From: Candidatus Falkowbacteria bacterium
GTDB taxonomy: Bacteria > Patescibacteriota > Patescibacteriia > Patescibacteriales > Patescibacteriaceae
DNA length: 38,664 nucleotides
Direction: 5' to 3'
NCBI GenBank assembly: GCA_037130845.1
Contig: JBAXSE010000013.1
Coordinates: forward strand, 1-38,664
Both the position numbers and the translations under genes were made by a program. Within the stretch, counting starts at the first letter, position 1, and each line of letters starts with the position of its first letter. The notes below the pieces were generated by a model. The model was not told where the DNA came from, did not search any database, and saw nothing but the letters and a program-made list of their open reading frames with translations. Positions 1 through 32,876 of the stretch are shown piece after piece.

Positions 1-40
1 TTACCCCTTGATGCCTAAGCCCGCGTAGCGGGCAAGATAG

Positions 41-74
41 AAACCGCCGGCTTTGACGGCGGTTTTCATTTTTT
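41..74 (+). terminator. Rho-independent terminator of a gene lying upstream of the window
   Basis: 9-bp stem aaaccgccg (41-49) / cggcggttt (57-65), 7-nt loop, then T-rich tail tcatttttt. Confidence 0.5.
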
Positions 75-81
75 ACCTGGC

Positions 82-110
82 TTGACATTGTTATTAAAAT
101 GTGTTAAAAA
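82..110 (+). promoter_or_regulatory. Candidate sigma70-type promoter for the zinc-ribbon gene
   Basis: TTGACA (82-87), 17-nt spacer ending in TGT, weak -10 TAAAAA (105-110). Confidence 0.35.
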
Positions 111-164
111 AGCCATAATTATTTGAAAATTAATCAGTATTTATGCATATATGTGGAGGTTTTG

Positions 165-1553
165 ATGTTATTGCAACAGGAATATAAGCGTCTTTGCCAG
201 GTCATGACTATGACGGCGGAGCATTTTGGAGTGGACATCGTCCTACCGTCAGTCATCCCTGATGAGTGGCAGACGGAATTTGATAAGAAAAGCAAGGTGG
301 TGTTGAGCCTTGGTTCGCATCATCTGGTTATCATGAGATATCTCAATACCTTGAAGATTGAATTGGTCAGCAATGCTGCTCATAATCTTAAGGATGAATG
401 GGCGCTCAAGGTCCATGACATCGATTTTGTGACTTGGGTCTATGGCAGCTATTTTTCTGCCGATAAGGTGTTTGATTTGACCAAGACGATCGGGACGCAT
501 TATCACCCCGAGATATTTCCTGATAAACCTTGGGAATGGAAAGAGAAAGCACCAACAGAAACAAAGGCGGAAACGATCGGACAATTCCTGCATCTCGAGC
601 CGGAGGTCCCGGTGGTTCCGGATATGGTAGTTGAACCTAATTTCGGCCAGCAGCCGGTAGTTGTGGAGAAAAGGCGGAATTGTCCTCATTGCAATCATCG
701 CTTGACTGCCGAAGAAGTGGCGGATGAATGTTGCAGCAAATGCGAGGAGTATTTCTATGTTTGTCCGCGTTGTTCAGTTCTGCTAAAAGAAGACCCCGAC
801 GACCTGGAAGAGTGCCCCAAATGCCATAAGACCTATCTGCATATCGATTGCCCTAGCAATAATTGCCAAGCCGAAGTCTGGATAGATGCCAAGCACTGTC
901 CTGAGTGCAAGAAGACGTTTGAACGACAGCCTTGCCCGAGCTGTGAAAAGCCGATTATCTTTTCGGAATCACAGGAGGAGTGTCCGCATTGCGGAAATAC
1001 GCTCTATATCTGCCCGCGCTGCCATTGTTATATTGATGAAGATCCTGACGATGTTGAGGAGTGCCCCAAGTGCCATAAGACGCTAAGGATAACCGATTGT
1101 CCTGGTAATCATTGTCGTGCGGATGTTTATGCCGATGCCACGGAATGTCCGGAGTGCCATATGCCCTTTGACCTCAAGCCTTGTCCGAGCTGCGAAAAGC
1201 CGATTATCTTTTCGGAAAATCTGGATGAGTGCCCATATTGCGATACTACGCTCTATATCTGCCCATTCTGCCATGAGTATATAGATGAAGATCCTGACGA
1301 TGCCGATGAATGTCCTAAATGTAAGGCTAGTCTGCGGCAGATGGATTGTCCAAATTGCGGTGACACTATCTTTGCGGATTATAAGTCTTGCCCGGCCTGC
1401 CATACTGAATTCGATTTTATTAAGTGTCCTGTCCTGGGCTGTGAAGAGATGATTATCTTGCACCAAGATGTAGAATCTTGTCCGCATTGTGATTTTGATA
1501 TCACATATACCAAATGCCCGCATTGCGACAAAGCGTATTATGTCGTGGTTTAA
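165..1553 (+). CDS. Poly-zinc-ribbon protein: ~170-aa N-terminal domain of unknown function plus about ten CPxC...CPxC zinc-ribbon pairs
   Basis: ORF 123-1553. Preferred start is ATG165, 5 nt after GGAGG (155-159). The C-terminal ~290 aa hold at least 10 paired CxxC/CPxC knuckles spaced 10-14 aa apart. Confidence 0.75.
   Translation: MLLQQEYKRLCQVMTMTAEHFGVDIVLPSVIPDEWQTEFDKKSKVVLSLGSHHLVIMRYLNTLKIELVSNAAHNLKDEWALKVHDIDFVTWVYGSYFSADKVFDLTKTIGTHYHPEIFPDKPWEWKEKAPTETKAETIGQFLHLEPEVPVVPDMVVEPNFGQQPVVVEKRRNCPHCNHRLTAEEVADECCSKCEEYFYVCPRCSVLLKEDPDDLEECPKCHKTYLHIDCPSNNCQAEVWIDAKHCPECKKTFERQPCPSCEKPIIFSESQEECPHCGNTLYICPRCHCYIDEDPDDVEECPKCHKTLRITDCPGNHCRADVYADATECPECHMPFDLKPCPSCEKPIIFSENLDECPYCDTTLYICPFCHEYIDEDPDDADECPKCKASLRQMDCPNCGDTIFADYKSCPACHTEFDFIKCPVLGCEEMIILHQDVESCPHCDFDITYTKCPHCDKAYYVVV
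756..1502 (+). repeat. Three tandem 249-bp (83-aa) in-frame coding repeats, each encoding three zinc ribbons
   Basis: Units begin Y-[VI]-CP-[RF]-C at nt 756, 1005 and 1254. Long identical nt strings recur one period apart, e.g. gaaaagccgattatcttttcggaa and acgctctatatctgccc. Confidence 0.85.
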
Positions 1554-1762
1554 TATATATCATTCTTTTGGGATTCATATTTACCATAATTAGAAACCAT
1601 TACCATTGAGCCAATAAATAGATATTTGATGAAAATCATCATTTCGAAGCCTTGATACTAACAATATTGAGGCTTTTTATATTATTAGTGTGGGCTTGTA
1701 ATATTTTGATATTTGTGTTTTAATTGACCCACTGTACAAAAAACTAACAAAAAGGAGGCCGT

Positions 1763-2191
1763 ATGTTTGGTCGGATAGAGCCGATTGTGGAGCGTGAATA
1801 CTTGGATGAGGTAGAGCTATTGTCTGTTTGGTTTGAGAATATCAAAGTCGTCAATAATGTATTCTCGCCGGTAGCGGTGTTCTCTTCTTGGTATGCCGCA
1901 GAAAAAGTAGGGGGTAGTCTGGATTTTAAGCAGGCAGCTCTTATTGAACGCACTGGAGAAATGCTAATGAAACATCTGGACGTGGCTTGGTTGATTCAAT
2001 TTTACGCCGCCGCTCCTCGCCATCAGTCCATACTACGTGATATTATCGTCGGTCTTATCGCCGAGTTGGTAGATCGCGAAAACAACACGGGATTGTTGGA
2101 ACACTATCTCTATTATGCGCAAAGATCAAAAGCGATAATAATCCAATCGATTATTCAATACAAAATAGGTGAATTATCGCTTGCCAAGTAA
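1763..2191 (+). CDS. Hypothetical protein (142 aa)
   Basis: ATG1763 lies 4 nt after AAAGGAGG (1751-1758). Clean ORF, no motif recognised. Confidence 0.6.
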   Translation: MFGRIEPIVEREYLDEVELLSVWFENIKVVNNVFSPVAVFSSWYAAEKVGGSLDFKQAALIERTGEMLMKHLDVAWLIQFYAAAPRHQSILRDIIVGLIAELVDRENNTGLLEHYLYYAQRSKAIIIQSIIQYKIGELSLAK

Positions 2192-2300
2192 AGCCCAAGG
2201 TGCAATACCGCGGGCTTTTTATGTACTTTGTTTGCCAAATACAAAAGGGCTAAAATAAAGGATATTTTAGTATATAGCCTGTGGCGAGTCTCTCAAACCA

Positions 2301-2329
2301 TTGACAGAAATGCCAAAGTATGCTATACT
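2301..2329 (+). promoter_or_regulatory. Sigma70-type promoter
   Basis: TTGACA (2301-2306), 17-nt spacer, TATACT (2324-2329), about 50 nt upstream of ATG2381. Confidence 0.55.
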
Positions 2330-2380
2330 GTAAACAATCAAAAAAGTTCATTATATTATCAATAAATTTGGAGCAGCCTA

Positions 2381-2686
2381 ATGTCAGTAAATACATACGA
2401 ATTCGCCACGGAACAGCGCTACATGTTCGGTTTTAATTACAACGGCGGAGCGCCGACAGACGTTATAGTCGAAACGCCGTCGTTGATAAATGACACACAG
2501 ATACTTTTCCATTTCTTGCATGGCCATCATTCACTGGGTGAATTTATCAACAAAAGCGATATTATCGCCGTCGGCGATGATAAGAATGGCACAGTAGGAG
2601 TCAAGGGCTGGTCCGGTAAATATGTCATTTTGAACGAGAAATTGTTTAATCAGTACAAAAAGACCGGTGCTCTGGAATTGAAATAA
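2381..2686 (+). CDS. Hypothetical small protein (101 aa)
   Basis: ORF bracketed by its own promoter (2301-2329) and terminator (2692-2724). No motif recognised. Confidence 0.6.
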   Translation: MSVNTYEFATEQRYMFGFNYNGGAPTDVIVETPSLINDTQILFHFLHGHHSLGEFINKSDIIAVGDDKNGTVGVKGWSGKYVILNEKLFNQYKKTGALELK

Positions 2687-2691
2687 GTTTA

Positions 2692-2724
2692 ATAGCCGTG
2701 TGAATGATCACCGGCTATTTTTTG
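2692..2724 (+). terminator. Rho-independent terminator
   Basis: Stem atagccgtg / caccggctat with one bulge, followed by ttttttg. Confidence 0.55.
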
Positions 2725-2764
2725 TTGTAAAATGGCTAAGATATAGGCTATTCTTGCCGTAAGC

Positions 2765-2793
2765 TTGACAAATATGGTAATCTGTGATATAAT
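2765..2793 (+). promoter_or_regulatory. Sigma70-type promoter with extended -10
   Basis: TTGACA (2765-2770), 17-nt spacer ending TGa, TATAAT (2788-2793). Confidence 0.6.
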
Positions 2794-2838
2794 GTAGACA
2801 ATTAAAATTAATTATTGTTAATCTATTGTGGAGTTATC

Positions 2839-3402
2839 GTGAAGTTTTTTATCGTTCTTTTCGCCCTCATATTTGCTACCGTTGCTTATTCGTTTGAAAA
2901 TCAGATCGAAATCGAAAATGCCAGTTGGCCGAAGGTTTCGTCTGTGAATAGCATCAAGCTGGATGTCCTGACTCAGATCCCTGAACAGGGCCATGACTCG
3001 GTTAATATCTACGCTCATGTCGAGATAGAACAGGAAGGGGATTCGGTTAACGGCCGCAGCTTTGTCGGTCTGATCTATAGCTCATTCATGACTATTAATC
3101 TCGGGGTCGGCCTGTGGCAGCACGAACCTTCGCCTGGCGCTAATCTGGGCATCGGGTATAAGTCCGAGCATCATGAATTGGATTTCCAAGTGGATGTGTG
3201 CACGCATCTTAAGCTGAGAGGCTTCTATAACTACAAGGCCGCCGATTGGCTCAAGCTTGGTCTCTACGGCCGCAGTGAATTGGGCATAGGTCCCAGGGCT
3301 ATTATCAGAGCAAGCGAAAGCATTAGTTTAGGTCTTGCCTACAGCTACAATCCGGAAAAAAGCCATGGCTTAGCCTTGGCGCAACTAATTATAAAGTTCT
3401 AA
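2839..3402 (+). CDS. Secreted small beta-strand-rich protein, possibly an OMP-like 8-stranded barrel (hypothetical)
   Basis: GTG2839 lies 5 nt after TGGAG. Signal-like N-terminus KFFIVLFALIFATVAYS. Amphipathic Gly/aromatic strands (LGIGYKS, LRGFYNYKA, ISLGLAYSY). C-terminus ends ...LIIKF. Confidence 0.5.
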   Translation: MKFFIVLFALIFATVAYSFENQIEIENASWPKVSSVNSIKLDVLTQIPEQGHDSVNIYAHVEIEQEGDSVNGRSFVGLIYSSFMTINLGVGLWQHEPSPGANLGIGYKSEHHELDFQVDVCTHLKLRGFYNYKAADWLKLGLYGRSELGIGPRAIIRASESISLGLAYSYNPEKSHGLALAQLIIKF

Positions 3403-3451
3403 TCTACGAGCCCTCTGACGCAAGTCGGAGGGCTTTTCCGTTTGTTGTTTG

Positions 3452-3481
3452 TAAATTAAAACCCCCTTCATCGGAAGGGGG
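3452..3481 (-). terminator. Rho-independent terminator of the histidine kinase gene
   Basis: 8-bp stem cccccttc (3462-3469) / gaaggggg (3474-3481), 4-nt loop. On the minus strand it is followed by ttttaattta. Confidence 0.65.
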
Positions 3482-3488
3482 TTCGTGT

Positions 3489-6386
3489 TTAGTAATACTT
3501 TTTTAACAGGCTTTCAAGTATCCGCCAGTCGATTGGCTTTTGGATATAGTCGTTACTGCCGGCTTCCAGCGCTTTTTCTTTGTCGCCTGATAAGGCGTGC
3601 GCTGTTTGTGTTATTATTATTACCTCGTGGCTGATAGATCGGATTTGTCTTATGGCGGAATAGCCGTCGAGTTTGGGCAGTTTAATATCCATTAGAATCA
3701 AGTTAATATCTTGATTTGCTTGGAAGATTTCGACAGCCTCTTTGCCATCGAATGCAAATATTATATTTGCATTCGGAATGAACTTGTTTATCGCTTTTTC
3801 TAGCAGTTTTTTTGATGCTTTGTCGTCTTCGGCGATTAGTACTAATAATTTGGAATTTATTAAATCGGACGAAGCTGATGCTTGAAGATTTGATTTTGCT
3901 TCTTTGGTGTCTGGCTTTGGGATAAATGGGATGGTGAAATAAAAAGTTGACCCTTTGTCAATCTCGCTTTCAACCCATATTTCTCCTCCTAACATCTTTA
4001 CATATGCTTGGCATATTGATAGCCCGAGTCCCGTTCCTTGCGTTGCTCTAGAATTATCCACTTGAATAAATCGATCAAAAATGGCCGTTATCATATCTTC
4101 GGGAATGCCTATTCCGCTGTCCTTGATGAAGAATTCAAGGTATTCTGATTTATTTTCGGCGTCAATTTTTTTTGCGCATCCAAACTCAATTAGGCCTTCA
4201 TCGCAGTTCTTGATAGCATTTTTTATCAAGTTTAACAGTATGGCTCGTACTTTTTCTTTGTCGGTGATAACGAGATTATCTCCATCGGCAAGCGGCTTCT
4301 TGAATATAAATCCGATATTTTTTTCTTTTGCCTCAAGCTTTAACAAGTCATAGACAAAGCCGAATTGCTCATTAACTGAGGTGACGGTTTGGTTGACATT
4401 CATTTGTCCGGCCTCGATCTTAGACAGATCGACAACGTCGTTAATGATGTCTAGCAGGTGGTTGCCGCAGTTTTTTATTATATTCAAGTATTCTCGATCT
4501 TCTGTACATGTTATATTGTCCAGCAGCAAGTTCGAAAACCCTAGAATGCCGTTCATAGGCGTTCTTATTTCGTGGCTGATATTTGCCAGAAAGGCTGACT
4601 TGAGTCGGTCGCTTTCTTGCGCTTTGTTCATGGCCTTGACCAAGTCTTCTCTCATGTGAATTTGCTCTGTAACATCAATTAGAATGCCTTGAAGGACTGG
4701 GCTCTCATGCTCTGTGTTTAAGAGACGGCTGTATACGGTAGCCGAGATAATTGTGCCATCCTTGGTTCTAAACCGATAAGTGTTATTGCCGGTCAGCACT
4801 CCTTGGATGGAATCGCTTAGATTCTTTCGGCCCCTTTCTCTGTCTTCTTCGACTATCAGATTGAAGATATTCATGCCTTGGCCGATTTCTTTTTCGGTGT
4901 AGCCGAAGACTTCAAACGATTGCTTGTTGAGCAGCGTAGCATTGCCCAGACTGTCAATCTGGAAGACTACTTCCGGCATCATTTCCAGGATGTTGCTCAT
5001 TTTTTGCTGGCTGTCTTCAAGCGCTTTTTCGATTTGTTTGCGTTGCAACGACCCTCCGATCGCGATGCTGATGCCTTCCATAAAATTAATAAACTCAAGA
5101 GTGAACTGGTTTTTTCGCAAGTCGTTTAGCTGCAATAGTCCGATTATTTCTTTGTTTATTTTGAGCGGTATCAGGGCAACCGATAAATATCCTTCGTGGA
5201 TACAACGATTGCGCGGGTTGTGCCTAGGGTCTTGTTCCGGAGAGAGGCTGAGTAAATCTAGCAAATTATTGATCCATGCGCTGCCATAATTGGTAAATAG
5301 TTGGTTATTGCTGTCTGTTTTGCCAGAAACAACTAATCCGCAAGTGCATTCGAGGCTAATTTCTCCTTGTTCGTTGTGGCAAAAAGCTTGATTTTTGCTG
5401 ATGAGCGATCTTTCTGCTATGAGAAATTTATTGTCAAAGCCTTTGCTGGCGTAATAAGGGAAGTCGTGTTCTTGTTTAAGTCTTATGCCGACAGCGCTTA
5501 TGTTTAATCTCCTTTTGATAATGCTTATAATCTTGTCGATAGTTTCTTCTAGTGAATATGTTTCATTAAGGATTTTGAGTATCTCGATAAACATTTCTTG
5601 ATTGCTTTCGTGCTTTTTCCTTTTTGTAACATCTTTGCTGATACCGCGGTAGCCTAATAATTCGCCATTTTTGTCCTGTATGGGATAGCCATTAGTCAAG
5701 AAACAGACGGGCTGTCCATTCTTATGAAGATTCCAATTCTCTAAATCAACTATGGCTTTTTTTTCTGCTGCGATGTTGTTTAGCACTTCTTTGATGCGAG
5801 CCTGTTCATTCTCCGGCATCAGATCATAGAGCGTGATGCCAATAATCTCGTTAGGTGAATACCCTAATGTATCTTCTATTTGTTTTGAACAGTAAGTGTA
5901 TTCCGAGTTTGAGTTTATCTCCCAGGCTATATTGGATGAACTAAGGACGATGTCCTTAAACCGTTGCTTGCTTTCTTGCAGCTCAAGCTGCCTCCTTATT
6001 TCCGATGTCATATCCCGAGATACAATTTGAACAAATTCGATTGCATTGCCGTTATAAATCGGTGACATAGTTGAACTGACCCACGCAATTGTGGTGTCTC
6101 CTGAGTTGATTGGCCTGTAGTTGGCTTTTGTAACAATGCCTTCTAGGCATTTGTTGAAGATTTCTCGCATATGGCCGGCAGTATCTACTTGGAAAAACGG
6201 CAACTCATAAAAGAGCTTGCCAATCAAGCTATTTTCGCCGTTTTCTTGCGTAATGGCTATTGCTTTTGAATTACAGGTAATAATTATCTCATTTCTATCG
6301 ATAATAAATATGGCGTCAGAGCTATTGAGAAAGTAATTTTGATACAGTTTGCTTAGCTCGGCTTCTCCCGGTGAGTCGTTTTTCAT
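3489..6386 (-). CDS. Hybrid sensor histidine kinase (multiple PAS, GAF-like, HisKA, HATPase_c, C-terminal receiver)
   Basis: 965-aa ORF. H-box FLANISHEIRTPMNGILGF; ATPase motifs IKDSGIGIP and GTGLGLSI; receiver LVLIAEDD...LILMDIKLPKLDG...TAHA. The N-terminal 580 aa contain repeated PAS-like segments around a GAF-like block. Confidence 0.9.
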   Translation of the reverse strand: MKNDSPGEAELSKLYQNYFLNSSDAIFIIDRNEIIITCNSKAIAITQENGENSLIGKLFYELPFFQVDTAGHMREIFNKCLEGIVTKANYRPINSGDTTIAWVSSTMSPIYNGNAIEFVQIVSRDMTSEIRRQLELQESKQRFKDIVLSSSNIAWEINSNSEYTYCSKQIEDTLGYSPNEIIGITLYDLMPENEQARIKEVLNNIAAEKKAIVDLENWNLHKNGQPVCFLTNGYPIQDKNGELLGYRGISKDVTKRKKHESNQEMFIEILKILNETYSLEETIDKIISIIKRRLNISAVGIRLKQEHDFPYYASKGFDNKFLIAERSLISKNQAFCHNEQGEISLECTCGLVVSGKTDSNNQLFTNYGSAWINNLLDLLSLSPEQDPRHNPRNRCIHEGYLSVALIPLKINKEIIGLLQLNDLRKNQFTLEFINFMEGISIAIGGSLQRKQIEKALEDSQQKMSNILEMMPEVVFQIDSLGNATLLNKQSFEVFGYTEKEIGQGMNIFNLIVEEDRERGRKNLSDSIQGVLTGNNTYRFRTKDGTIISATVYSRLLNTEHESPVLQGILIDVTEQIHMREDLVKAMNKAQESDRLKSAFLANISHEIRTPMNGILGFSNLLLDNITCTEDREYLNIIKNCGNHLLDIINDVVDLSKIEAGQMNVNQTVTSVNEQFGFVYDLLKLEAKEKNIGFIFKKPLADGDNLVITDKEKVRAILLNLIKNAIKNCDEGLIEFGCAKKIDAENKSEYLEFFIKDSGIGIPEDMITAIFDRFIQVDNSRATQGTGLGLSICQAYVKMLGGEIWVESEIDKGSTFYFTIPFIPKPDTKEAKSNLQASASSDLINSKLLVLIAEDDKASKKLLEKAINKFIPNANIIFAFDGKEAVEIFQANQDINLILMDIKLPKLDGYSAIRQIRSISHEVIIITQTAHALSGDKEKALEAGSNDYIQKPIDWRILESLLKKYY

Positions 6387-6647
6387 GGTTATACCTTCTG
6401 GTAAATATATTTAAATTGTTAATGAACTTTCTAAAGGTAATTATTTAAGCATTATTGTGGCTGTTTGTCAATTTTCGTCAGTATACGGCTTATAATGCTA
6501 TGTAAACATTTTGCGCGTATTTTCGTAAATCGGGAGAAGCTTGGGATTTACATGTTGAGCAAATTAATTGCGTTATTTTTAATTGCAAAATTGCATTATT
6601 TGTTGATTCGTTAGATACTGATGTTAGGATAATTAATAAAAATTTAT

Positions 6648-7784
6648 ATGGCAGACGTCTATCAAGAGTCTTTGGCCTTGCACCAGGCTCATCGCGGCAA
6701 ATTTGAAATCAAAAGCAAAGTGCCATTAGCCGATAAGCATGACTTGTCTTTGGCCTATACGCCCGGCGTGGCTGAAGTCTGCCGGGTGATTGCAGCGGAC
6801 AAATCCAGGGTGATGGACCTGACACTCAAGGGGAATACAGTGGCCGTAGTGTCCGATGGCAGCGCGATTTTGGGCTTGGGCAACCTGGGCCCGGAGGCGG
6901 CCATCCCGGTAATGGAAGGCAAGTGCCTATTGTTCAAGGAGTTTGCCGGGGTTGACGCCTTCCCCATCTGTCTGGCCACGCAAGACACAGAAGAGATTAT
7001 TAAAGCGGTCAAGCTGATTGCCCCAGTCTTCGGCGGCATCAATCTGGAAGATATTTCCGCTCCGCGCTGTTTCGAAATCGAAGAACGGCTTAAGGCCGAA
7101 TTGGATATTCCGGTGATGCACGACGATCAGCATGGTACAGCCACGGTGGTTCTGGCCGCGCTGATCAACGCTCTCAAATTGAGCGGACTAGACAAGGACA
7201 CGGCGCGCTTGGTTGTCAATGGCGCTGGCGCGGCCGGCACAGCGGTGTCGGATCTGCTGATTAAATATGGTTTTAAGAATATTATCATCTGTGATAGCAC
7301 GGGCGCAATCTATGCGGGCCGTCCTGACTTGAGCGAAGTCAAAAAGAAGTTGGCCAGCCAGACTAATCCTGAACAAATCAAAGGCTCTCTGGCCGAGGCG
7401 ATCGTAGGCGCTGATATCTTTATCGGAGTTAGCGCGCCTGGCGTACTGACGGCGGAGATGGTCAAGACGATGGGCGCCAAGCCGATTATCTTTGGTTTGG
7501 CTAATCCTGTGCCCGAGATTATGCCCGAGCTGGCCTTGGCGGCGGGCGCCTTTATCGTGGCTAGCGGCCGCAGCGATTATCCCAATCAGATTAATAATGT
7601 CCTGGCATTCCCTGGCATCTTCCGCGGGGCCTTGGACAATGAGGTCAAGCAGATTACCGACGAGATGCTGATTCGCGCGGCCGAAAATCTGGCCGGCCTG
7701 GTAGCCGACCCGAGACCGGACGAAGTCTTGCCTAATGCATTTAATAAGGATGTGGCAAAAGTTGTGGCAGCAGCTATTTTTTAA
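6648..7784 (+). CDS. NAD(P)-dependent malic enzyme (short ~380-aa type)
   Basis: Motifs LAYTPGVA, DGSAILGLGNLGP, PVMEGK, FGGINLEDI, HDDQHGTA, Rossmann NGAGAAG, LANPVPEI, NNVLAFPG. Confidence 0.9.
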   Translation: MADVYQESLALHQAHRGKFEIKSKVPLADKHDLSLAYTPGVAEVCRVIAADKSRVMDLTLKGNTVAVVSDGSAILGLGNLGPEAAIPVMEGKCLLFKEFAGVDAFPICLATQDTEEIIKAVKLIAPVFGGINLEDISAPRCFEIEERLKAELDIPVMHDDQHGTATVVLAALINALKLSGLDKDTARLVVNGAGAAGTAVSDLLIKYGFKNIIICDSTGAIYAGRPDLSEVKKKLASQTNPEQIKGSLAEAIVGADIFIGVSAPGVLTAEMVKTMGAKPIIFGLANPVPEIMPELALAAGAFIVASGRSDYPNQINNVLAFPGIFRGALDNEVKQITDEMLIRAAENLAGLVADPRPDEVLPNAFNKDVAKVVAAAIF

Positions 7785-7870
7785 CTGCGCCTATATTTTT
7801 GTTTTCCGGCATGTTATAATATTTGCACAAGAGGCGTCGGTTAAGCGCTTGTGTTATTGTAAAGATTTAT

Positions 7871-8953
7871 ATGCCTAAGTGCGGAAAAATTAAGTCCGGA
7901 TTTACTTTAATTGAGCTGTTGGTTGTTATTGTGATTATTGGAGTGTTGGCCAGCTTGACAATGCTGGCCTTGAATAACGCTCGAGCCAAGAGTAGGGATG
8001 CTAAGCGGGTTAATGATATTCGGCAGATTAGCACTGCTGTTGAATTGTATTATGCTGAATACGGTATTTATCCTAGTTCTATTGCTAATGCTATTATTAG
8101 CGCTGATGGCACTAAAACATATATGGCCAAGACGCCGACTAATCCCAGTCCGATGAACGATGGCAGTTGCGGCGCTGACAATTACACTTATGCTACCACC
8201 TCGGATGCTACCGATTATTCATTGAACTTTTGTTTGGCTTATGGCGCAGGCGCTTTGTCGCCCGGCATTGGTTCGGTGAGCAAAGGCGGTTTTGATACCG
8301 CTCCCGGATTGATCGGCTGGTGGAAATTTTCTGACGGCAATAGTCCGGTAATTGATAGCAGCGGTAAAAGCAATAGCGGCTCGAATAATGGAGCAACTTG
8401 GGGCGCTGACAGCGGCCAATATGGCGGAGGGGCCTACACCTTCGATGGCGTTAATGATGCCATAGCTACTAATTCAAACATCTTGAATAACGCGACCGAA
8501 TTTACAATCGCTTTTTGGACCAAGCCATTGAGTTTTGGCGGTTGGAAAGGAATGATCGGCAAAGGTACGAGCGATACTAATGTTATAACGGTGCAGGCGG
8601 ATACGGGCGGGCGCATCTATGTCGACGTTGACAACGGTGTGTCAAATTCTTTTGCCAATACTGGCTTGGGTGTTTTGTCAGTCGGCCAGTGGGCGCACGT
8701 GGCGGCCGTTTATCAGGGTAGCGGCGCTACTAATGCTGATCGGGTAAAAGTCTATGTTAATGGCGCTAACTTGGCATTAACTTTTAGCGGAACGATCCCA
8801 ACGCAAACAGCTACATCCAACGCCGGCATTCTCTATATTGGTCAGCTCGGTTATGCCAGCAATTTCTATAATGGAATTATGGATGATGTGCGTATTTACA
8901 GCCGCAGTTTATTGCCCGAAGAGATAAGCGCGTTGTATAATTTTTCTAAATAA
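7871..8953 (+). CDS. Prepilin-type (type IV pilin-like) protein fused to a LamG/concanavalin-A-like lectin domain
   Basis: Start ATG7871 gives MPKCGKIKSG|FTLIELLVVIVIIGVLA, the class III signal/N-methylation motif. The C-terminal ~200 aa resemble Laminin_G_3 (WWKF..G....DSSG..N.G...GA.W, FDG.ND, FT...W.KP, DDVRIYSR.L...EI). Confidence 0.8.
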   Translation: MPKCGKIKSGFTLIELLVVIVIIGVLASLTMLALNNARAKSRDAKRVNDIRQISTAVELYYAEYGIYPSSIANAIISADGTKTYMAKTPTNPSPMNDGSCGADNYTYATTSDATDYSLNFCLAYGAGALSPGIGSVSKGGFDTAPGLIGWWKFSDGNSPVIDSSGKSNSGSNNGATWGADSGQYGGGAYTFDGVNDAIATNSNILNNATEFTIAFWTKPLSFGGWKGMIGKGTSDTNVITVQADTGGRIYVDVDNGVSNSFANTGLGVLSVGQWAHVAAVYQGSGATNADRVKVYVNGANLALTFSGTIPTQTATSNAGILYIGQLGYASNFYNGIMDDVRIYSRSLLPEEISALYNFSK

Positions 8954-8958
8954 AGTTT

Positions 8959-9258
8959 GTGGCAAATGATATTTACTACATCGCCGGCATCTTGCTGGCG
9001 CTCAACCTGATCGCCTTCGCGGCGATGATGGTAGACAAGATCAAGTCGGCCAAGACAGGCAAGCGGCGCATTTCCGAAGGCATGCTGTTCTTTATGGCAA
9101 CGCTCTTCGGCAGCGTCGGCGTCTATGCCGGCATGTTCGCCTTCCGCCACAAGACCAGGAAATGGTATTTTTTGATCGGCATTCCGCTCTTGATGATCGA
9201 GAACGCCGCCTTGCTCTATCTGCTTTATTTATTTTTGAGTGGAACGGTTATTTGGTAA
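8959..9258 (+). CDS. DUF1294 family membrane protein
   Basis: Signature VDK.KA..G..RISE..L...A..GG..G...GM..FRHKT.K..F is present (MVDKIKSAKTGKRRISEGMLFF...FRHKTRKWYF). GTG start is tentative. Confidence 0.75.
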   Translation: MANDIYYIAGILLALNLIAFAAMMVDKIKSAKTGKRRISEGMLFFMATLFGSVGVYAGMFAFRHKTRKWYFLIGIPLLMIENAALLYLLYLFLSGTVIW

Positions 9259-24069: not shown

Positions 24070-26706
24070 ATGAATGTTGCACAATTAAACACAGAAAAGC
24101 GTCTTGCTACGGCTATTATGCCTTGGAAAGACATCAGCATCGGTTCGGCCGCTATTGTTTCTAGCACTATCGCTAATAGCGGTATTTTTACTTCTACCCA
24201 AACCTTTAAGATTCAAGTTCCGCTTAGTGTTAACGAAAGCGTAACCAGGGATTATGACGGTTATCGCTTGCCAATGGACAAGCTGGACGAAGACGGAGTA
24301 ATCCGAGTCGGCGAGAGCGTCGCCTTGGGTGATGTGCTGGTTGCCATGATTGAATATGATCCACGAGAGTATCAGCCGGAAGAAAAATTGCTCAAAGCAA
24401 TTTTTGGCGACGGTGCTACTAACGTGACCGATCGTTCGGTTACCATGTCTTTCCCTGATCCTGCTATAGTCTATAGCGTCGAAAAAAAACTCGAAGGCAA
24501 AAAAAAGCTGGTGACTGTTTATCTGGCCTTTAAACGTAAACTACGTTTGGGTGATATTCTGGTCGATAGCAAAGGTAACCAAGCAGTTGTCTCGGCTGTT
24601 GTTGCTGATAATGAAATGCCTTATCTGAAAAGCTCGCAAACCAGAGCTCAAATAGTGGTTACGCCGCTCACTGATTGCGGCGAAACGATGGTAGATCATT
24701 TGGATAAACAAAGGCTGGTTGTGGTATATGATACCGAAGATCCCAAGTTTATCCTGATAGCGCCGCCGCTTGATAGGCCAAGCAAAAATAAGAAGTGGTT
24801 ATGCAAAGATGAAGAAGCGCGTTTTGGGGCTATCGCTTGGAAAAAATTAGAACTATTGTCCGGTCAAAAGAATATCGGTTATGGCGTTCAAAGTAGATTG
24901 CGCAACGATGCCCAATTGGTGGATGGCATCAAGATCCGCCAAGAATTTATCACAAGCCTGTTGCATTACAATCTGCCGGCTGTAGCCAGAGAATTTTTGA
25001 CCGTCAAGTCTGACGATGCCAAAGGCTACGGCGATACTGTACAAGCTATTATTAATGGATGGTCTTTGCCCGCAGCGGCTGCTCCGGCTTCGCTAAAGCG
25101 CTATGAAGCGACGATCAAGGCAATGGCCTTGACTATCGGAGTCGATAACGGCAGTAGGCAAGTCGGCTTACTTGATGGCTATAATTATCCCAACCAGGAT
25201 TTGCCAGGTATTGGCGTTTCTTTGTGGGTAACTCCGCAATCAGAGATTTTGGCTCAGTCCCACGGTGAATTGACCGGTGTTGATTATATGGATGATGCTA
25301 TCAAGCAGGCTCAAGGGAAAAAGAAAACAGACAAGATAGAAGTCGGTTTGTTCAGCCAACGCATTTTCGGCCCTCTACGGGATTATGAATGCGCTTGCGG
25401 TAAATACAAGCGAGTCCGCTATAGCGGCATCGTCTGCGATCGTTGCGGTGTCTTGGTAGCGCAAAGCTCTGTGCGCAAAGAACGTTTCGGCCATATCAAC
25501 CTGGCTTTGCCTTGCGTGCATCCTTTGTTCGAAAAAGCAGTTGCCGAGTTATATAAGTCGATCGATTACACGAACACTCCGCAATATTTTGAAGAGCTGA
25601 TCGAAAAAAACTTTGATCTAGAAAAAGCCGATTATCTTTTTGAATGTTCCGAGATAATGAAAAAGTTATCGTTGCCCGAACAGCAGATTCTTAATGTCAT
25701 CCCGGTCATGCCGGCCGGTTGGCGTTCCGATTGGATGTCTTATACTAGCAGTTGGACAATGGATTTAAATTATCTATATAGCAGATTAATGACTCGTAAC
25801 AATCGATTGACTCGATTAATCGACATCAAAGCTCCTTGGATGATTATCTCCAATGAATATCGAATGCTACAAGAGGCTTTGTCTGAATTATTTAATTGCA
25901 CTCATTTGGGGAGTGAGACTCCGCCTGTCGGATTGATCCATAGCCTGCAAGCAGCCGGTCGCAATCTTTATGACAAAAAGGTTAGTTATTCCGGACGTGC
26001 GCTGGTTATCCCAGATGACCGCCTGGCAATCGACGAATGCGTTTTGCCTAGAACTCTGGCAGTCAGATTGTTTGAGCCTTTTGTGCTTCAGCGCTTGATG
26101 GCATCGCCGCCGGAAACTCCTTGCGACCCGATTTGGGACGATTCTTATCCGGATCTGCCTCCTATCTTGGCAGATGTAGTAGTAGATATTGCCGCTGGCA
26201 ATAAGACTACAGTCGATCTAAAGAAGATTGATGAAGATGAAGCTAGAGCTTATCCGGGCTATACCTACAAGACGGCTAGTGGAATGGTTAAAAATAACCA
26301 CCCCGAAGCATTGGAAAAGCTGGAAGCGATTGTTGGCGATAGGGTTGTCCTATTGAGCTCTGTCAGTCAGATAGAATTTGCCGGTTTTTGTCCACGTTTA
26401 AGTAACGAAGAAGTCATCAGACTTCATCCGCAGGCTATTAAGCTTCTTGGTATTTCTCTGGGTAAGGCTGGCAAGGCGTTAGTCTATCTACCCTTGTCTG
26501 ATGATGCTCAAGCGGAAGTCAAAGGTGTTATGTGCGGCCAAGAATGGTCGTATGTTCCTCAGACTCCGAGCGTTGGATATAGCTCTGTTCTTAATAGTAA
26601 TCTCAAGCATCTTGTTTCTAATCCTTGGTTGGATCAACCGGAGCCGGAAACCTGCAAATGGTTGCTATCCTTAAATGATCGATTTTTGCTCAATTATAGC
26701 AAATAG
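24070..26706 (+). CDS. RNA polymerase beta (C-terminal third) / beta-prime (N-terminal third) fusion-like protein lacking catalytic motifs (pseudo-RNAP)
   Basis: 878-aa ORF, AAGGAA SD. Beta-like blocks: PEEKLLKAIFGDGATNVTDRSV, VYLAFKRKLRLGDILVDSKGNQAVVS..EMPY, FLTVKSDD. Beta-prime-like blocks: GLFSQRIFGPLRDYECACGKYKRVRYSGIVCDRCGV, VIPVMPAGWR, LYSRLMTRNNRLTRLIDIKAP..ISNEYRMLQEAL, VSYSGRALVI, LPRTLAVRLFEPF. There is no NADFDGD; the aligned segment is LGISLGKAGKALVYLPL. Confidence 0.85.
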   Translation: MNVAQLNTEKRLATAIMPWKDISIGSAAIVSSTIANSGIFTSTQTFKIQVPLSVNESVTRDYDGYRLPMDKLDEDGVIRVGESVALGDVLVAMIEYDPREYQPEEKLLKAIFGDGATNVTDRSVTMSFPDPAIVYSVEKKLEGKKKLVTVYLAFKRKLRLGDILVDSKGNQAVVSAVVADNEMPYLKSSQTRAQIVVTPLTDCGETMVDHLDKQRLVVVYDTEDPKFILIAPPLDRPSKNKKWLCKDEEARFGAIAWKKLELLSGQKNIGYGVQSRLRNDAQLVDGIKIRQEFITSLLHYNLPAVAREFLTVKSDDAKGYGDTVQAIINGWSLPAAAAPASLKRYEATIKAMALTIGVDNGSRQVGLLDGYNYPNQDLPGIGVSLWVTPQSEILAQSHGELTGVDYMDDAIKQAQGKKKTDKIEVGLFSQRIFGPLRDYECACGKYKRVRYSGIVCDRCGVLVAQSSVRKERFGHINLALPCVHPLFEKAVAELYKSIDYTNTPQYFEELIEKNFDLEKADYLFECSEIMKKLSLPEQQILNVIPVMPAGWRSDWMSYTSSWTMDLNYLYSRLMTRNNRLTRLIDIKAPWMIISNEYRMLQEALSELFNCTHLGSETPPVGLIHSLQAAGRNLYDKKVSYSGRALVIPDDRLAIDECVLPRTLAVRLFEPFVLQRLMASPPETPCDPIWDDSYPDLPPILADVVVDIAAGNKTTVDLKKIDEDEARAYPGYTYKTASGMVKNNHPEALEKLEAIVGDRVVLLSSVSQIEFAGFCPRLSNEEVIRLHPQAIKLLGISLGKAGKALVYLPLSDDAQAEVKGVMCGQEWSYVPQTPSVGYSSVLNSNLKHLVSNPWLDQPEPETCKWLLSLNDRFLLNYSK

Positions 26707-30503: not shown

Positions 30504-32876
30504 ATGTTATTAAGCATTGTCCTACAGTACATCGTTCCGATAATCGTTGCGTTCATCGTATTGATTGTCGTTATGAATTCATTCGCGAACGCCAAAGGCG
30601 ATCAGATTATTTTGTTAGAACGCCGTTGGTTCGGCAAGTCTATGCCGGACGGCCGTACAGTTGCTCTTCATAATGAAGTCGGCGTCCAGGCCAGAGTTCT
30701 GGGTCCAGGTTTCCATTGGTTGATTCCATTTATTTATAAGACAACCAAGATGCCTTTTACCACCATCCATAAGAATAAGGTCGGTGTCGTGCGTGCCATT
30801 ACTGGTGCCACTTTGCCGAGCGATAAGATTATGGCCAAGACGGTAGCTTGTGACTATTTCCAAGATGGCGAAGCCTTCTTGATGAATGGCGGACAAAAAG
30901 GTCCGCAGATTACCATACTGCCAGACGGTGAATACAAGATTAATCCGCATTTGTTCAATGTGGTAGAAGTTGAAGCCATCATGATTGATGATGATCATAT
31001 TGCAGTCGTTGAAGCCATTGCCGGTTTACCGGTCACTAGGCCCGGAGGAAACTTTGGATCGCCAGTACCCTGTGATAATTTCCAGGATGGCGAAGCTTTC
31101 TTGGCAAACGGCGGACAGAAAGGCCCGCAGGTTGCTTTTATAGAGCCAGGGTTCTATAGGATTAATACGATCATGTTTGACGTAGCGCTCATGCCTATTA
31201 CCGTAATACCAGGCGGGCATGTTGGTTTGGTTTTAGCGACTGATGGTGCCAGGATTCCTGAAGGCCGTTTGTTGGCTAACAAAGTAGAAGGACATGATAA
31301 TTTCTATAATGGCGAAGCTTTCTTGGCAAAAGGCGGCGAAAGAGGCCGTCAAATCGATACTTTGCCTCCGGGAAGATATAGGCTTAATCCAAGACTCTTT
31401 GAAATCAAAGAAAATGCTATTATCCCTTGGACGAACATTTCGGCCGATGAGGTCGGAATTGTGACAGTCAATGAAGGTAGGCCGATTATCGACGCTACCA
31501 AGATAGCTGCTGAAGAACTACCCATGGGTACGCACAATAATTTCCAGGATCCGAACGCCTTCTTGAAGGCTGGCGGACAAAAAGGTTTGCAGATTCCAGT
31601 GCTACGCGCCGGAAACTATGCAATCAATCCCTGGTTCTGTACTGTGGAAAAAGTACCGATGGTCCAGGTGGCAATCGGATTCTGCGGCGTCGTCACTAGC
31701 TATGTCGGTGAAGAGGGCAAAGATCTGACGGAAGATGATGTCAATGCCAAGATTGTCGAGAACGGCAAGAAGGGTATTTGGTCCGAACCGTTACAGCCGG
31801 GCAAACACCCCTTGAATACCAAGATCTGTAAAGTGGACATTGTGCCCACGACCCAGATATTGCTTAATTGGGCGGATAACCGTTCCAGTGCTCATGAGCT
31901 TGATACTAACTTGAAGACCATTACCTTACGTACGTCAGACGCCTTTAATGTTAATATGGATGTCTCCGTGATTATCCATATCCCAATGAAGAATGCGCCG
32001 AAGGTTATCGCCAATCTTGGATCGGTCAAGAATATGATTTCTCAGGTTCTTGAACCGGCTATCTCGTCGCACTTCCGTAATGCTGCTCAGTATATCCAGG
32101 CATTGGAATTATATACCAAGCGTAAAGAATTACAGGATACTGCTAAGGTTCATATCGATAGCGTACTTAAGGTGCACCATATCGATTCCAAGGAAACTTT
32201 GATTGCTGATGTTGTCCTGCCGCTCGAATTAACCAAGACGGTTACCGACAGGCAGATTGCCGAACAGGAAAAGAAAACCTTCTTTACTCAGAAGGAGGCA
32301 CAGGATGAAAGACGTACTCTCGAAAACGCCAAGGCCCAAGCAGATATGCAGCCTGAGGTAGTTAAATCCGAGAGGAATGTCGAAATCGCCAAGAACATCG
32401 CCGAAGGTAAGGTCAAGGAAGCGGAAGGTATGAAATCCGCCGCTATCTTGAAGGCTACCGGTGATGCCGAATCAGTCAAACTGAAAGCCAGAGCTGACGC
32501 CGAAGCAGTCACTGTGACCGCCGAAGCGAACGCCAAGAAGGTCAAGGTCACGGCTGAAGCCGATTCTGAGGCTATCATGAAAGTTGGAACATCCGAAGCT
32601 GATATCATATTAGCCAAAGGTAAATCAACTGCCGAGTCCTACAAGCTGGAAGTCGATGCCATGGGCAAAGAGGTCTTTGGACAGATCCGTGTAGTCAGAG
32701 AAATCGCAGCCAGCAAGCTGAAATTCATTCCTGAAAACTTAATTATCGGCGGTGGCAGCGGTGCTGGCAGCAGTTCGATGGAAAACATGATGGGCATTGC
32801 TTTGATGGAAAAGCTATCCGGCAGAGCATTTAGTGCTACCGAAAAAGCTGTTGAAAAAACAGAAGTAAAAGTTTAA
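30504..32876 (+). CDS. Membrane-anchored SPFH/band-7 flotillin-like protein with a repeat-expanded N-terminal region
   Basis: N-terminal TM LLSIVLQYIVPIIVAFIVLIVVM. SPFH-like core (LRTSDAFNVNMDVSVIIHI...). C-terminal E/A/K-rich flotillin-type coiled coil (AEGKVKEAEGMKSAAILKATGDAESVKLKARADAEAV...). Confidence 0.75.
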   Translation: MLLSIVLQYIVPIIVAFIVLIVVMNSFANAKGDQIILLERRWFGKSMPDGRTVALHNEVGVQARVLGPGFHWLIPFIYKTTKMPFTTIHKNKVGVVRAITGATLPSDKIMAKTVACDYFQDGEAFLMNGGQKGPQITILPDGEYKINPHLFNVVEVEAIMIDDDHIAVVEAIAGLPVTRPGGNFGSPVPCDNFQDGEAFLANGGQKGPQVAFIEPGFYRINTIMFDVALMPITVIPGGHVGLVLATDGARIPEGRLLANKVEGHDNFYNGEAFLAKGGERGRQIDTLPPGRYRLNPRLFEIKENAIIPWTNISADEVGIVTVNEGRPIIDATKIAAEELPMGTHNNFQDPNAFLKAGGQKGLQIPVLRAGNYAINPWFCTVEKVPMVQVAIGFCGVVTSYVGEEGKDLTEDDVNAKIVENGKKGIWSEPLQPGKHPLNTKICKVDIVPTTQILLNWADNRSSAHELDTNLKTITLRTSDAFNVNMDVSVIIHIPMKNAPKVIANLGSVKNMISQVLEPAISSHFRNAAQYIQALELYTKRKELQDTAKVHIDSVLKVHHIDSKETLIADVVLPLELTKTVTDRQIAEQEKKTFFTQKEAQDERRTLENAKAQADMQPEVVKSERNVEIAKNIAEGKVKEAEGMKSAAILKATGDAESVKLKARADAEAVTVTAEANAKKVKVTAEADSEAIMKVGTSEADIILAKGKSTAESYKLEVDAMGKEVFGQIRVVREIAASKLKFIPENLIIGGGSGAGSSSMENMMGIALMEKLSGRAFSATEKAVEKTEVKV
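30765..31670 (+). repeat. Four clear tandem protein modules of 74-80 aa, plus degenerate copies on either side, within the SPFH gene
   Basis: Motif [CH]D[YN]F[QY][DN]GEAFL.[NK]GG[QE][KR]G.Q...L.PG.Y.[IL]N recurs with Phe codons at nt 30858, 31080, 31302 and 31542. The similarity is visible at nt level (tttccaggatggcgaagctttcttggcaaa...). Confidence 0.8.

Follow-up and report, generated by a model that had tools for sequence, protein, structure and literature searches.

A contig of 38,664 nucleotides (nt) from a Candidatus Falkowbacteria bacterium (JBAXSE010000013.1), referred to at its full length as the window, encodes at positions 165 to 1,553 of its forward strand a 462-amino-acid (aa) protein that combines a small folded head domain, a disordered linker and an array of ten predicted zinc ribbons followed by one unpaired cysteine knuckle. 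Judged from its sequence, this is an intact, conserved and expressed-looking gene with a strongly acidic, putatively cytoplasmic product, and it belongs to a very small uncharacterised family that comes, so far, from metagenome bins of the candidate phyla radiation (CPR, Patescibacteria). We tentatively propose, with a confidence that stops somewhat short of even, that the protein acts in the NfeD-flotillin system as a multivalent scaffold or adaptor that is stabilised by zinc and whose array contains a duplicated block. Zinc-ribbon repeats of the DZR type are known; the unrecognised fold of the head domain, the triplet grammar of the array with its half-site, and the neighbourhood of flotillin, NfeD and β-carbonic-anhydrase-like (β-CA-like) genes are new here.

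Proteins with multiple zinc ribbons are frequent in annotations and almost never studied, and the present family offers a rule-based example, in which ribbons follow a fixed triplet grammar, a half-site is conserved, and whole units have been gained and lost by recombination. Gene order in the relatives ties the family to flotillin/NfeD scaffolds, whose bacterial clients are poorly known. If this link is true, the protein would be a new soluble component of bacterial membrane microdomains in organisms that are not yet culturable, and if it is false, the protein would be one more lineage-specific hypothetical protein whose internal repeat is old.

The zinc-ribbon array

The protein contains 45 cysteines and 21 knuckles, of which 18 are of the CxxC type and the remainder are CPSNNC, CPGNHC and CPVLGC, and 44 of the cysteines fall within the 292 residues of the array (15% Cys). 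The knuckles make up ten ribbon pairs and one unpaired C-terminal CPHC. Their spacing (13-6-13-8-10-8-12-6-..., where the pattern 13-6-13-8-10-8-12-6 recurs three times) is long within ribbons (10–13 aa) and short between them (6–8 aa), which is the spacing of double zinc ribbons, and the Pfam family DZR (PF12773) is matched in four stretches with 57.2 bits against a cutoff of 27.3 (E = 1.8e-15), the best of them (aa 366–412) covering profile positions 1–44 of 45. A preliminary description of this stretch of DNA had proposed a poly-zinc-ribbon protein, and this is confirmed. DZR was the sole family recognised by Pfam in the window protein, TF_Zn_Ribbon was not among the matches, and an NCBIfam search of the same protein returned nothing useful; the relatives also match the Pfam families DZR_2 and Zn_ribbon_6.

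The earlier division of the array into three 83-aa super-repeats, each holding three ribbon types (A, B and C), was likewise upheld, and the order A-B-C is conserved across the family. The array of a family member consists of a ribbon 0, n A-B-C triplets and a lone C-terminal CxxC, with n = 3 in the window protein, and the number of knuckles is 2+6n+1, giving 9, 15 and 21 for n = 1, 2 and 3; in two long members, P0014 and P0023, the number goes far beyond 21. The lone C-terminal half zinc site is kept in all full-length members, whose number of knuckles (9, 15 or 21) is odd in every case and leaves the last one without a partner knuckle, and the AlphaFold2 (AF2) model places this last knuckle at the tip of the terminal β-hairpin. 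In the full-length AF2 model, the protein is ordered from residue 171 to its end with a predicted local distance difference test score (pLDDT) of ~90, and each ribbon has a short β-hairpin with its first knuckle at the centre, such that knuckle 229–234 is flanked by strands 226–228 and 237–239 and knuckle 257–260 by strands 254–256 and 263–265.

The array is strongly acidic, with 59 Asp and Glu residues against 26 Lys and Arg (net charge −33, pI 4.6), and this bears on what it might bind. Zinc ribbons are found in many nucleic-acid-binding proteins, and multivalent binding of nucleic acid or of protein had been suggested. A nucleic-acid-binding regulator, in which the tandem ribbons would read DNA or RNA, is nevertheless very unlikely in view of this charge, in which the negative Zn(Cys)4 centres are not yet counted. 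Arrays are acidic in 20 of the 21 family members, the sole exception being P0021 (net +15), and Pfam and NCBIfam searches of the window protein found no helix-turn-helix or other DNA-binding domain. The array does show weak sequence matches to designed C2H2 arrays (2i13, E = 0.0023), but its search against PDB sequences gave nothing meaningful, the matches being compositional and insignificant. Of the functions suggested, protein binding, or scaffolding, fits best, given the NfeD-flotillin neighbourhood of the relatives described below.

Head domain, linker and family

The preliminary description had assigned the first ~170 aa to a domain with no recognisable motif. No known motif was found here either, but the region is not a single domain: it comprises a folded domain of 108 aa, modelled with AF2 on an alignment of 14 head-domain sequences, and a disordered linker of ~60 aa, which varies in length and sequence across the family and in which nonsynonymous divergence (dN) peaks. 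Pfam gave no consistent match to the head domain among the 14 members, even at E up to 10, and the head-domain profile found nothing meaningful among PDB sequences (best E 0.024). A fold search of the N-terminal domain, which had been suggested at the outset, was carried out with Foldseek against the PDB and returned no relative (TM-scores ≤ 0.29), and the full model also had no match in the PDB by Foldseek. The head therefore appears, from the model, as a confidently predicted fold without detectable relatives that is confined to a handful of CPR lineages. A CesT/Tir-type chaperone-like head (CesT/YbjN/DUF2170) was considered because such an assignment would fit the theme of flotillin operons, in that a CesT/Tir-type chaperone-like domain is a partner of flotillin/YqiJ operons (PMC11237479), and it was supported by neither a sequence nor a fold match.

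A word-indexed search of 5.8 billion proteins yielded 15 relatives, and an exhaustive hidden Markov model (HMM) search of 1.84 billion cluster representatives with the head profile yielded only 14 clusters. A profile search of the GTDB species representatives found no relative, and a metagenome scan added three further loci; the named sources of family members are Falkowbacteria and Parcubacteria bins. The plan of head, variable linker and ribbon array is common to nearly all members. In P0013 a true Pro_CA (β-carbonic anhydrase) domain is inserted in the linker, and P0022 and one paralogue at locus L006 have the head domain without ribbons, so that the head is the module that defines the family. 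At L006 (positions 5223–9164), three head-domain paralogues stand in tandem with NfeD-like and Band_7 genes after them, namely P0013, with its β-carbonic anhydrase before the ribbons, P0021, with its basic array, and the ribbon-less protein, which has 293 aa and consists, beyond its head, of an acidic linker and a helical C-terminus.

Origin of the third triplet

At an offset of 249 nt the gene is identical to itself at a fraction of 0.55 over 625 nt, compared with ≤ 0.40 at every other in-frame offset, and a repeat search returned a 228-nt pair at 76% identity as well as several three-copy families spaced 249 + 249. Tandem Repeats Finder, run on positions 1–3000, missed the 249-nt array, the divergence between its units being too great. 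The exact repeats one 249-nt period apart that were noted earlier are real, with runs of 24 nt (945–968), 19 nt (1035–1053) and 18 nt (998–1015), and they exceed what is expected when codons are redrawn from the codon usage of the window (P = 0.006 for a longest run ≥ 24); codon identity at identical residues is 0.67 versus 0.44 expected from codon usage.

The units had been placed at nt 756, 1005 and 1254. The period of this arrangement holds, but the best-conserved register is shifted, to blocks 843–1091 and 1092–1340. In the original register, units 1 and 2 are 70% identical in nt and 63% in aa and unit 3 reaches only 45–51% in nt, ungapped, while the two shifted blocks are 72% identical in nt and 65% in aa, with a synonymous divergence (dS) of ~1.05 and a dN of 0.25. 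When the single ribbons are compared with those of two-triplet relatives, the window array reads A1 / B1 C1 A2 / B1' C1' A2' / B2 C2: in chain order, A2 and A3 are alike similar to the second-unit A of these relatives, C1 and C2 to their first-unit C, and B3 and C3 to their second-unit B and C, the CPxxxC spacing included. On this comparison, the third triplet is best read as the product of an in-register duplication of B1-C1-A2 (nt 843–1091 giving 1092–1340).

The duplication was described as recent, and this is rejected. The nearest relative, on contig L011, shares all three triplets, with 77% nt identity across the gene, and between the window and L011 orthologous blocks are 76–80% identical in aa, compared with 60–65% for paralogous blocks. 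Among the informative sites of an alignment of the four blocks, 25 group the orthologues, 10 group the blocks within a genome and 1 groups them crosswise. The dS between the blocks, the comparison of orthologues and these site patterns together place the duplication before the split of the window and L011 lineages. The related proposal of ongoing concerted evolution stands in part, since the excess of 10 within-genome sites over 1 (one-sided binomial estimate, p ~0.006) points to some short gene-conversion tracts, as do the long exact runs and the raised codon identity, and not to wholesale homogenisation. An example of putative conversion is the codon pattern AGC/AGC versus CAT/CAT in a knuckle of the C ribbon.

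The longest exact run deserves separate mention. The 24-mer GAAAAGCCGATTATCTTTTCGGAA, which encodes EKPIIFSE (window 945–968 and 1194–1217), is found unchanged in three of the four repeat blocks of the two genomes, the L011 copies lying at about 4743–4766 and 4992–5015, and the fourth block has one mismatch. This identity persists despite saturated synonymous divergence between the blocks, and an EKPIIFSE that arose independently would be spelled with just these codons with a probability of about 1.5e-3. Its conservation may reflect a constraint at the nucleotide level or repeated conversion.

Variation in copy number, which had been raised as a possibility, was not seen among four assemblies of the organism and is present across the family, whose members have one, two, three or more triplets. 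P0016 and P0003, which are 68% identical along their length, differ by one unit (81 aa), which is cleanly missing from P0016 with a junction that falls within a type-A ribbon, and this deletion, as read from the alignment, is the signature of unequal recombination.

Integrity of the gene

The terminator-like hairpin at 40–66 closes the upstream unit (Table 1), so the gene begins a new unit, and it looks monocistronic, with such hairpins flanking it at both ends. Its product is identical to the protein WCO55_03925 of a metagenome-assembled genome at NCBI (Candidatus Falkowbacteria bin). There is no transmembrane (TM) segment in the 462-aa protein (maximum Kyte-Doolittle 19-residue hydropathy 1.24), and no Rfam family was found in window positions 1–3600. 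Comparison with L011 indicates purifying selection, with a dN of 0.15 and a dS of 1.20 over the whole gene.

The nearest relative has a peculiarity of its own. At L011:4778–4780 an in-frame TGA stands at the codon for Cys273 (window 981–983, TGT), the first cysteine of a CPxC knuckle, and the gene caller cut the L011 protein there at 275 aa (P0002). The frame on the 3' side remains open for 187 aligned codons in which every cysteine is kept and dN/dS is about 0.09. This TGA may stem from a sequencing error or from a nonsense mutation that is very recent, or it may encode selenocysteine. The selenocysteine reading was not adopted: the 9+2-bp hairpin that begins 11 nt after the TGA is unremarkable in energy (z = −1.56), and a search of the stretch that follows with Rfam gave only chance-level matches (snoRNA families).

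The L011 TGA, in the sole close relative, is also the one point in favour of regarding the array as an assembly artefact or the gene as a decaying pseudogene, an explanation that is improbable in the extreme. Four assemblies (ENA, JGI and two Logan runs), built separately and by different pipelines, contain the same open reading frame (ORF) DNA letter for letter, so that mis-assembly is not a credible explanation, and the units, at ~72% identity, are too diverged to collapse or expand in assembly. Disruption of the ORF in close relatives, which had been named together with mis-assembly as what would overturn the preliminary description, appears in L011 in the form of the in-frame TGA, but the frame and all cysteines downstream of it are retained, and the window copy is free of any disruption.

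Gene neighbourhoods and proposed function

The family gene adjoins NfeD/YqiJ and flotillin/SPFH genes in six to seven of about nine informative loci of the relatives. A cluster of NfeD/YqiJ and flotillin/Band_7 genes, directly downstream and on the same strand, is found at L001/L002, L013, L012, L006, L015 and L016 (Table 1). The β-CA-like proteins retain the zinc-ligand motifs CxDxR and HxxC, and they are linked to the family in two independent ways, once by fusion (P0013) and once by neighbourhood. It is this gene order, together with the two β-CA-like links, that underlies the assignment of the protein to the NfeD-flotillin system.

Two kinds of protein at these loci are of note in themselves. 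A small family encoded directly after flotillin (L001:13243–13854, L013:4989–5636 and L005:7531–7914) combines a DivIVA-like N-terminal helix with a β-carbonic-anhydrase-like core, and its L001 member matches Pfam Pro_CA_2 with 34.8 bits (cutoff 30). At L005:9470–12181, beside the family gene of a Parcubacteria bin, a 903-aa protein with MVP_shoulder and Vault_3 matches is encoded, which is a vault/SPFH-like protein in a CPR bacterium.

In the mechanism that we propose, zinc would lock every ribbon into a small rigid bead, one zinc each and hence about ten per chain, and the triplet array would form a multivalent protein-binding rod of tunable length, with its conserved acidic loops, for example that of the type-A ribbons (YICPRCxEYIDEDPDD), as candidate binding surfaces. 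The head domain would tether the rod or drive oligomerisation, and the lone C-terminal CxxC could find the other half of its zinc site in trans, on another copy of the protein or on a partner. The probable partner system, going by gene order in most relatives, would be the membrane scaffold of NfeD/YqiJ and flotillin (SPFH), in many cases with a β-CA-like protein. In the window genome the gene would have moved away from any NfeD-flotillin operon, and elsewhere in the family unequal recombination would have altered n between 1 and 3 or more. A more specific form of the proposal is doubtful when taken as a whole: the protein would be an accessory subunit of NfeD-flotillin scaffolds, an acidic zinc-beaded rod in which the number of triplets sets spacing or valency, the CxxC in trans joins rods or docks a partner, and the new head fold provides the tether, possibly along with the β-CA-like protein.

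Several observations weigh against the scaffold or adaptor proposal. The window gene is neighboured by genes for proteins of 142, 101 and 195 aa without a Pfam match and, on the other strand, by a PAS histidine kinase, and no NfeD or flotillin gene adjoins it. The sole SPFH gene of the window (30504–32876) is 29 kb away and lacks an NfeD partner, and this detachment of the copy in the window genome weakens the NfeD-flotillin assignment. At L003 no association with flotillin or NfeD is seen. The family is small (14 clusters at 50% identity), and the neighbourhood statistic comes from only ~9 loci. The full-length model has a predicted template modelling score (pTM) of 0.48, which leaves its overall shape undefined, and we infer the pairing of knuckles and the rod geometry from spacing, the DZR match and secondary structure only.

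The β-CA-like proteins also bear on a different function, that of a zinc store, buffer or chaperone whose ~10 Cys4 sites would take up Zn(II) and give it up again, for example to these proteins. A metal buffer had also been suggested at the outset. This function is unlikely. It would account for the 44 cysteines in 292 residues and the ten predicted zinc sites, for the Pro_CA domain inside P0013, for the β-CA-like gene with intact CxDxR and HxxC motifs that follows flotillin in L001 and L013, and for the NicO/DsbD_2-type gene, which resembles those of metal transporters, in the L015 cluster. However, the sites look structural, being classical CPxC knuckles at β-hairpin turns with a pLDDT of ~90, and Zn(Cys)4 ribbon sites are normally too tight for metal exchange. 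The array also has 24 aromatic residues with only one CC and one CxC motif, positions other than cysteine are strongly conserved in the family (for example YICPRCxEYIDEDPDD), and dN/dS is about 0.1; metallothionein-like buffers have no such order.

A further alternative is a zinc-thiolate redox or stress switch, in which oxidants or envelope stress would free the zinc of the CxxC pairs and a change of conformation would signal to the membrane-stress machinery. Hsp33 and RsrA are zinc-release switches of this kind, and the protein has many CxxC pairs. SPFH/NfeD neighbourhoods are linked to envelope-stress systems in other bacteria (PMC11237479; PMC9239133), and at L001 thioredoxin and desulfoferrodoxin are encoded a few genes further downstream. 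This alternative is nonetheless quite improbable, as L001 is the only locus with such redox-gene neighbours, the protein has no redox-enzyme domain, and ten near-identical structural sites go far beyond the need of a switch. The scaffold or adaptor proposal is preferred over both.

Other features of the window and feature list

The distant SPFH gene of the window (forward strand) encodes a 790-aa SPFH/Band_7 protein with an N-terminal TM segment, about four tandem repeats of ~70–90 aa (NFQDGEAFLxxGGQKGxQ) before the Band_7 domain and a long coiled-coil tail. At 24070–26706 (+) an 878-aa ORF matches RNA polymerase Rpb2 domain 6 (aa 10–199, E = 2e-23) and, further on, Rpb1 domain 1 (E 6e-22), with domain 2 (aa 528–676) below the Pfam cutoff, and is a small fused β/β'-like, two-barrel RNA-polymerase-like protein, much shorter than rpoB plus rpoC. 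At 7823–8953 (+) a 376-aa protein, in which a prepilin-type N-terminal methylation motif is fused to Laminin_G_3 (concanavalin-like), is a candidate for a large pilin-like adhesin. The PADLOC HMMs for anti-phage defence gave no match for the 462-aa protein or its three downstream neighbours.

Table 1. Features of the gene in the window and genes adjoining family members at the loci of relatives.
Feature or locus	Window position or family member	Strand	Description
Upstream terminator-like hairpin and T-run	40..66	+	10-bp stem with 6 GC pairs, T-run; ends the preceding transcription unit
Shine-Dalgarno GGAGG	154..158	+	6 nt 5' of the ATG at 165; gene callers in the public records share this start for the 462-aa product
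Coding sequence	165..1553	+	462 aa and stop; start ATG at 165
N-terminal α/β head domain, aa 1–108	165..488	+	Predicted order α-α-β-β-β-α-β-β, pLDDT 94
Disordered Pro/Glu-rich linker, aa 109–170	489..674	+	pLDDT < 50 for residues 109–167
Ribbon 0, CPHC-13-CSKC	681..743	+	Short helix between knuckles; precedes the triplets in all full-length members
Type-A ribbon A1 (CPRC...EDPDD...CPKC)	762..824	+	
Block B1 (CPSNNC..CPEC), C1 (CPSC..CPHC), A2 (CPRC..CPKC)	843..1091	+	Putative source copy of the internal duplication
Block B1' (CPGNHC..CPEC), C1' (CPSC..CPYC), A2' (CPFC..CPKC)	1092..1340	+	Putative second copy of the duplication
Last B and C ribbons (CPNC..CPAC, CPVLGC..CPHC)	1341..1490	+	Orthologous to second-unit B/C of two-unit family members
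C-terminal β-hairpin with lone CPHC (aa 451–454)	1509..1550	+	Predicted strands 445–450 and 457–461 flank the knuckle
Downstream terminator-like hairpin and T-run	1646..1676	+	3' of the stop codon
L001/L002	P0004		NfeD-like (202 aa), flotillin (Band_7+Flot, 476 aa), β-CA-like (203 aa), second Band_7
L013	P0006		NfeD-like, flotillin, β-CA-like, as the first three genes of L001/L002
L012	P0005		271-aa membrane protein at a distance of 8 nt, followed by NfeD_TM and flotillin
L006	P0013, P0021, ribbon-less head paralogue		NfeD-like, Band_7 (518 aa), homologue of the 271-aa membrane protein
L015	new 433-aa member		YqiJ_N protein, Band_7 (671 aa), NicO/DsbD_2-like
L016	new member		NfeD-like gene at contig end
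L005	P0012		Fragment like a flotillin C-terminus, β-CA-like gene, 903-aa MVP_shoulder (SPFH-like) protein
L003	P0014		Only a tandem paralogue; no SPFH gene

Comparison with known systems

The closest sequence likeness is to Pfam DZR, with which the window protein shares adjacent CPxC...CPxC ribbon pairs in its four DZR stretches. DZR is a two-ribbon module of unknown function that usually occurs once, as an accessory domain, whereas the window protein has ten ribbons in a fixed A-B-C grammar, a half-site, and a head that is covered by no model.

With metallothioneins the protein shares its richness in cysteine and the large number of predicted zinc sites on one chain. Metallothioneins, however, have more cysteine, CxC and CC clusters, no aromatic residues and no regular secondary structure, and the array, with 15% Cys, knuckles of the CxxC type only, 24 aromatic residues and predicted ordered β-hairpins, does not belong among them. 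The Rad50 zinc hook is comparable by analogy only, in that a conserved CxxC that sits alone on a β-hairpin tip could in principle share zinc between chains; the window protein has neither coiled coils nor sequence similarity to it.

A literature search found no paper on poly-zinc-ribbon proteins in flotillin operons. A precedent for zinc-ribbon proteins in SPFH operons is the pspA-ydjGHI (samGHI) operon of Bacillus subtilis, in which YdjG has zinc ribbons, the SPFH protein has a C-terminal zinc ribbon, and YdjG and YdjH recruit the SPFH protein to the membrane (PMC9239133; PMC11237479; bioRxiv 10.64898/2026.02.06.704340). The likeness lies in zinc-ribbon proteins that are co-encoded with an SPFH protein and a membrane partner, as the relatives are in NfeD/YqiJ-flotillin clusters. 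An operon resembling that of YdjG/SamG in this respect is present at L001, L002, L006, L012, L013, L015 and L016 and is absent around the window copy, and pspA, which belongs to the ydjGHI operon, was not seen in those loci of relatives that were examined. The proteins themselves, compared by description, are also distinct, as YdjG/SamG is an integral membrane protein with two zinc ribbons and an NTF2-like domain, whereas the window protein has no TM segment, ten ribbons and a different head.

The downstream genes of the relatives share the architecture of the YuaF-FloT pair of B. subtilis and the YqiJ-YqiK pair of Escherichia coli, with a TM plus NfeD/YqiJ_N protein and a TM plus Band_7 plus Flot protein (476–671 aa). 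These classical pairs are not accompanied by a poly-zinc-ribbon gene or a β-CA-like gene, and both additions appear to be specific to the present loci of the CPR.

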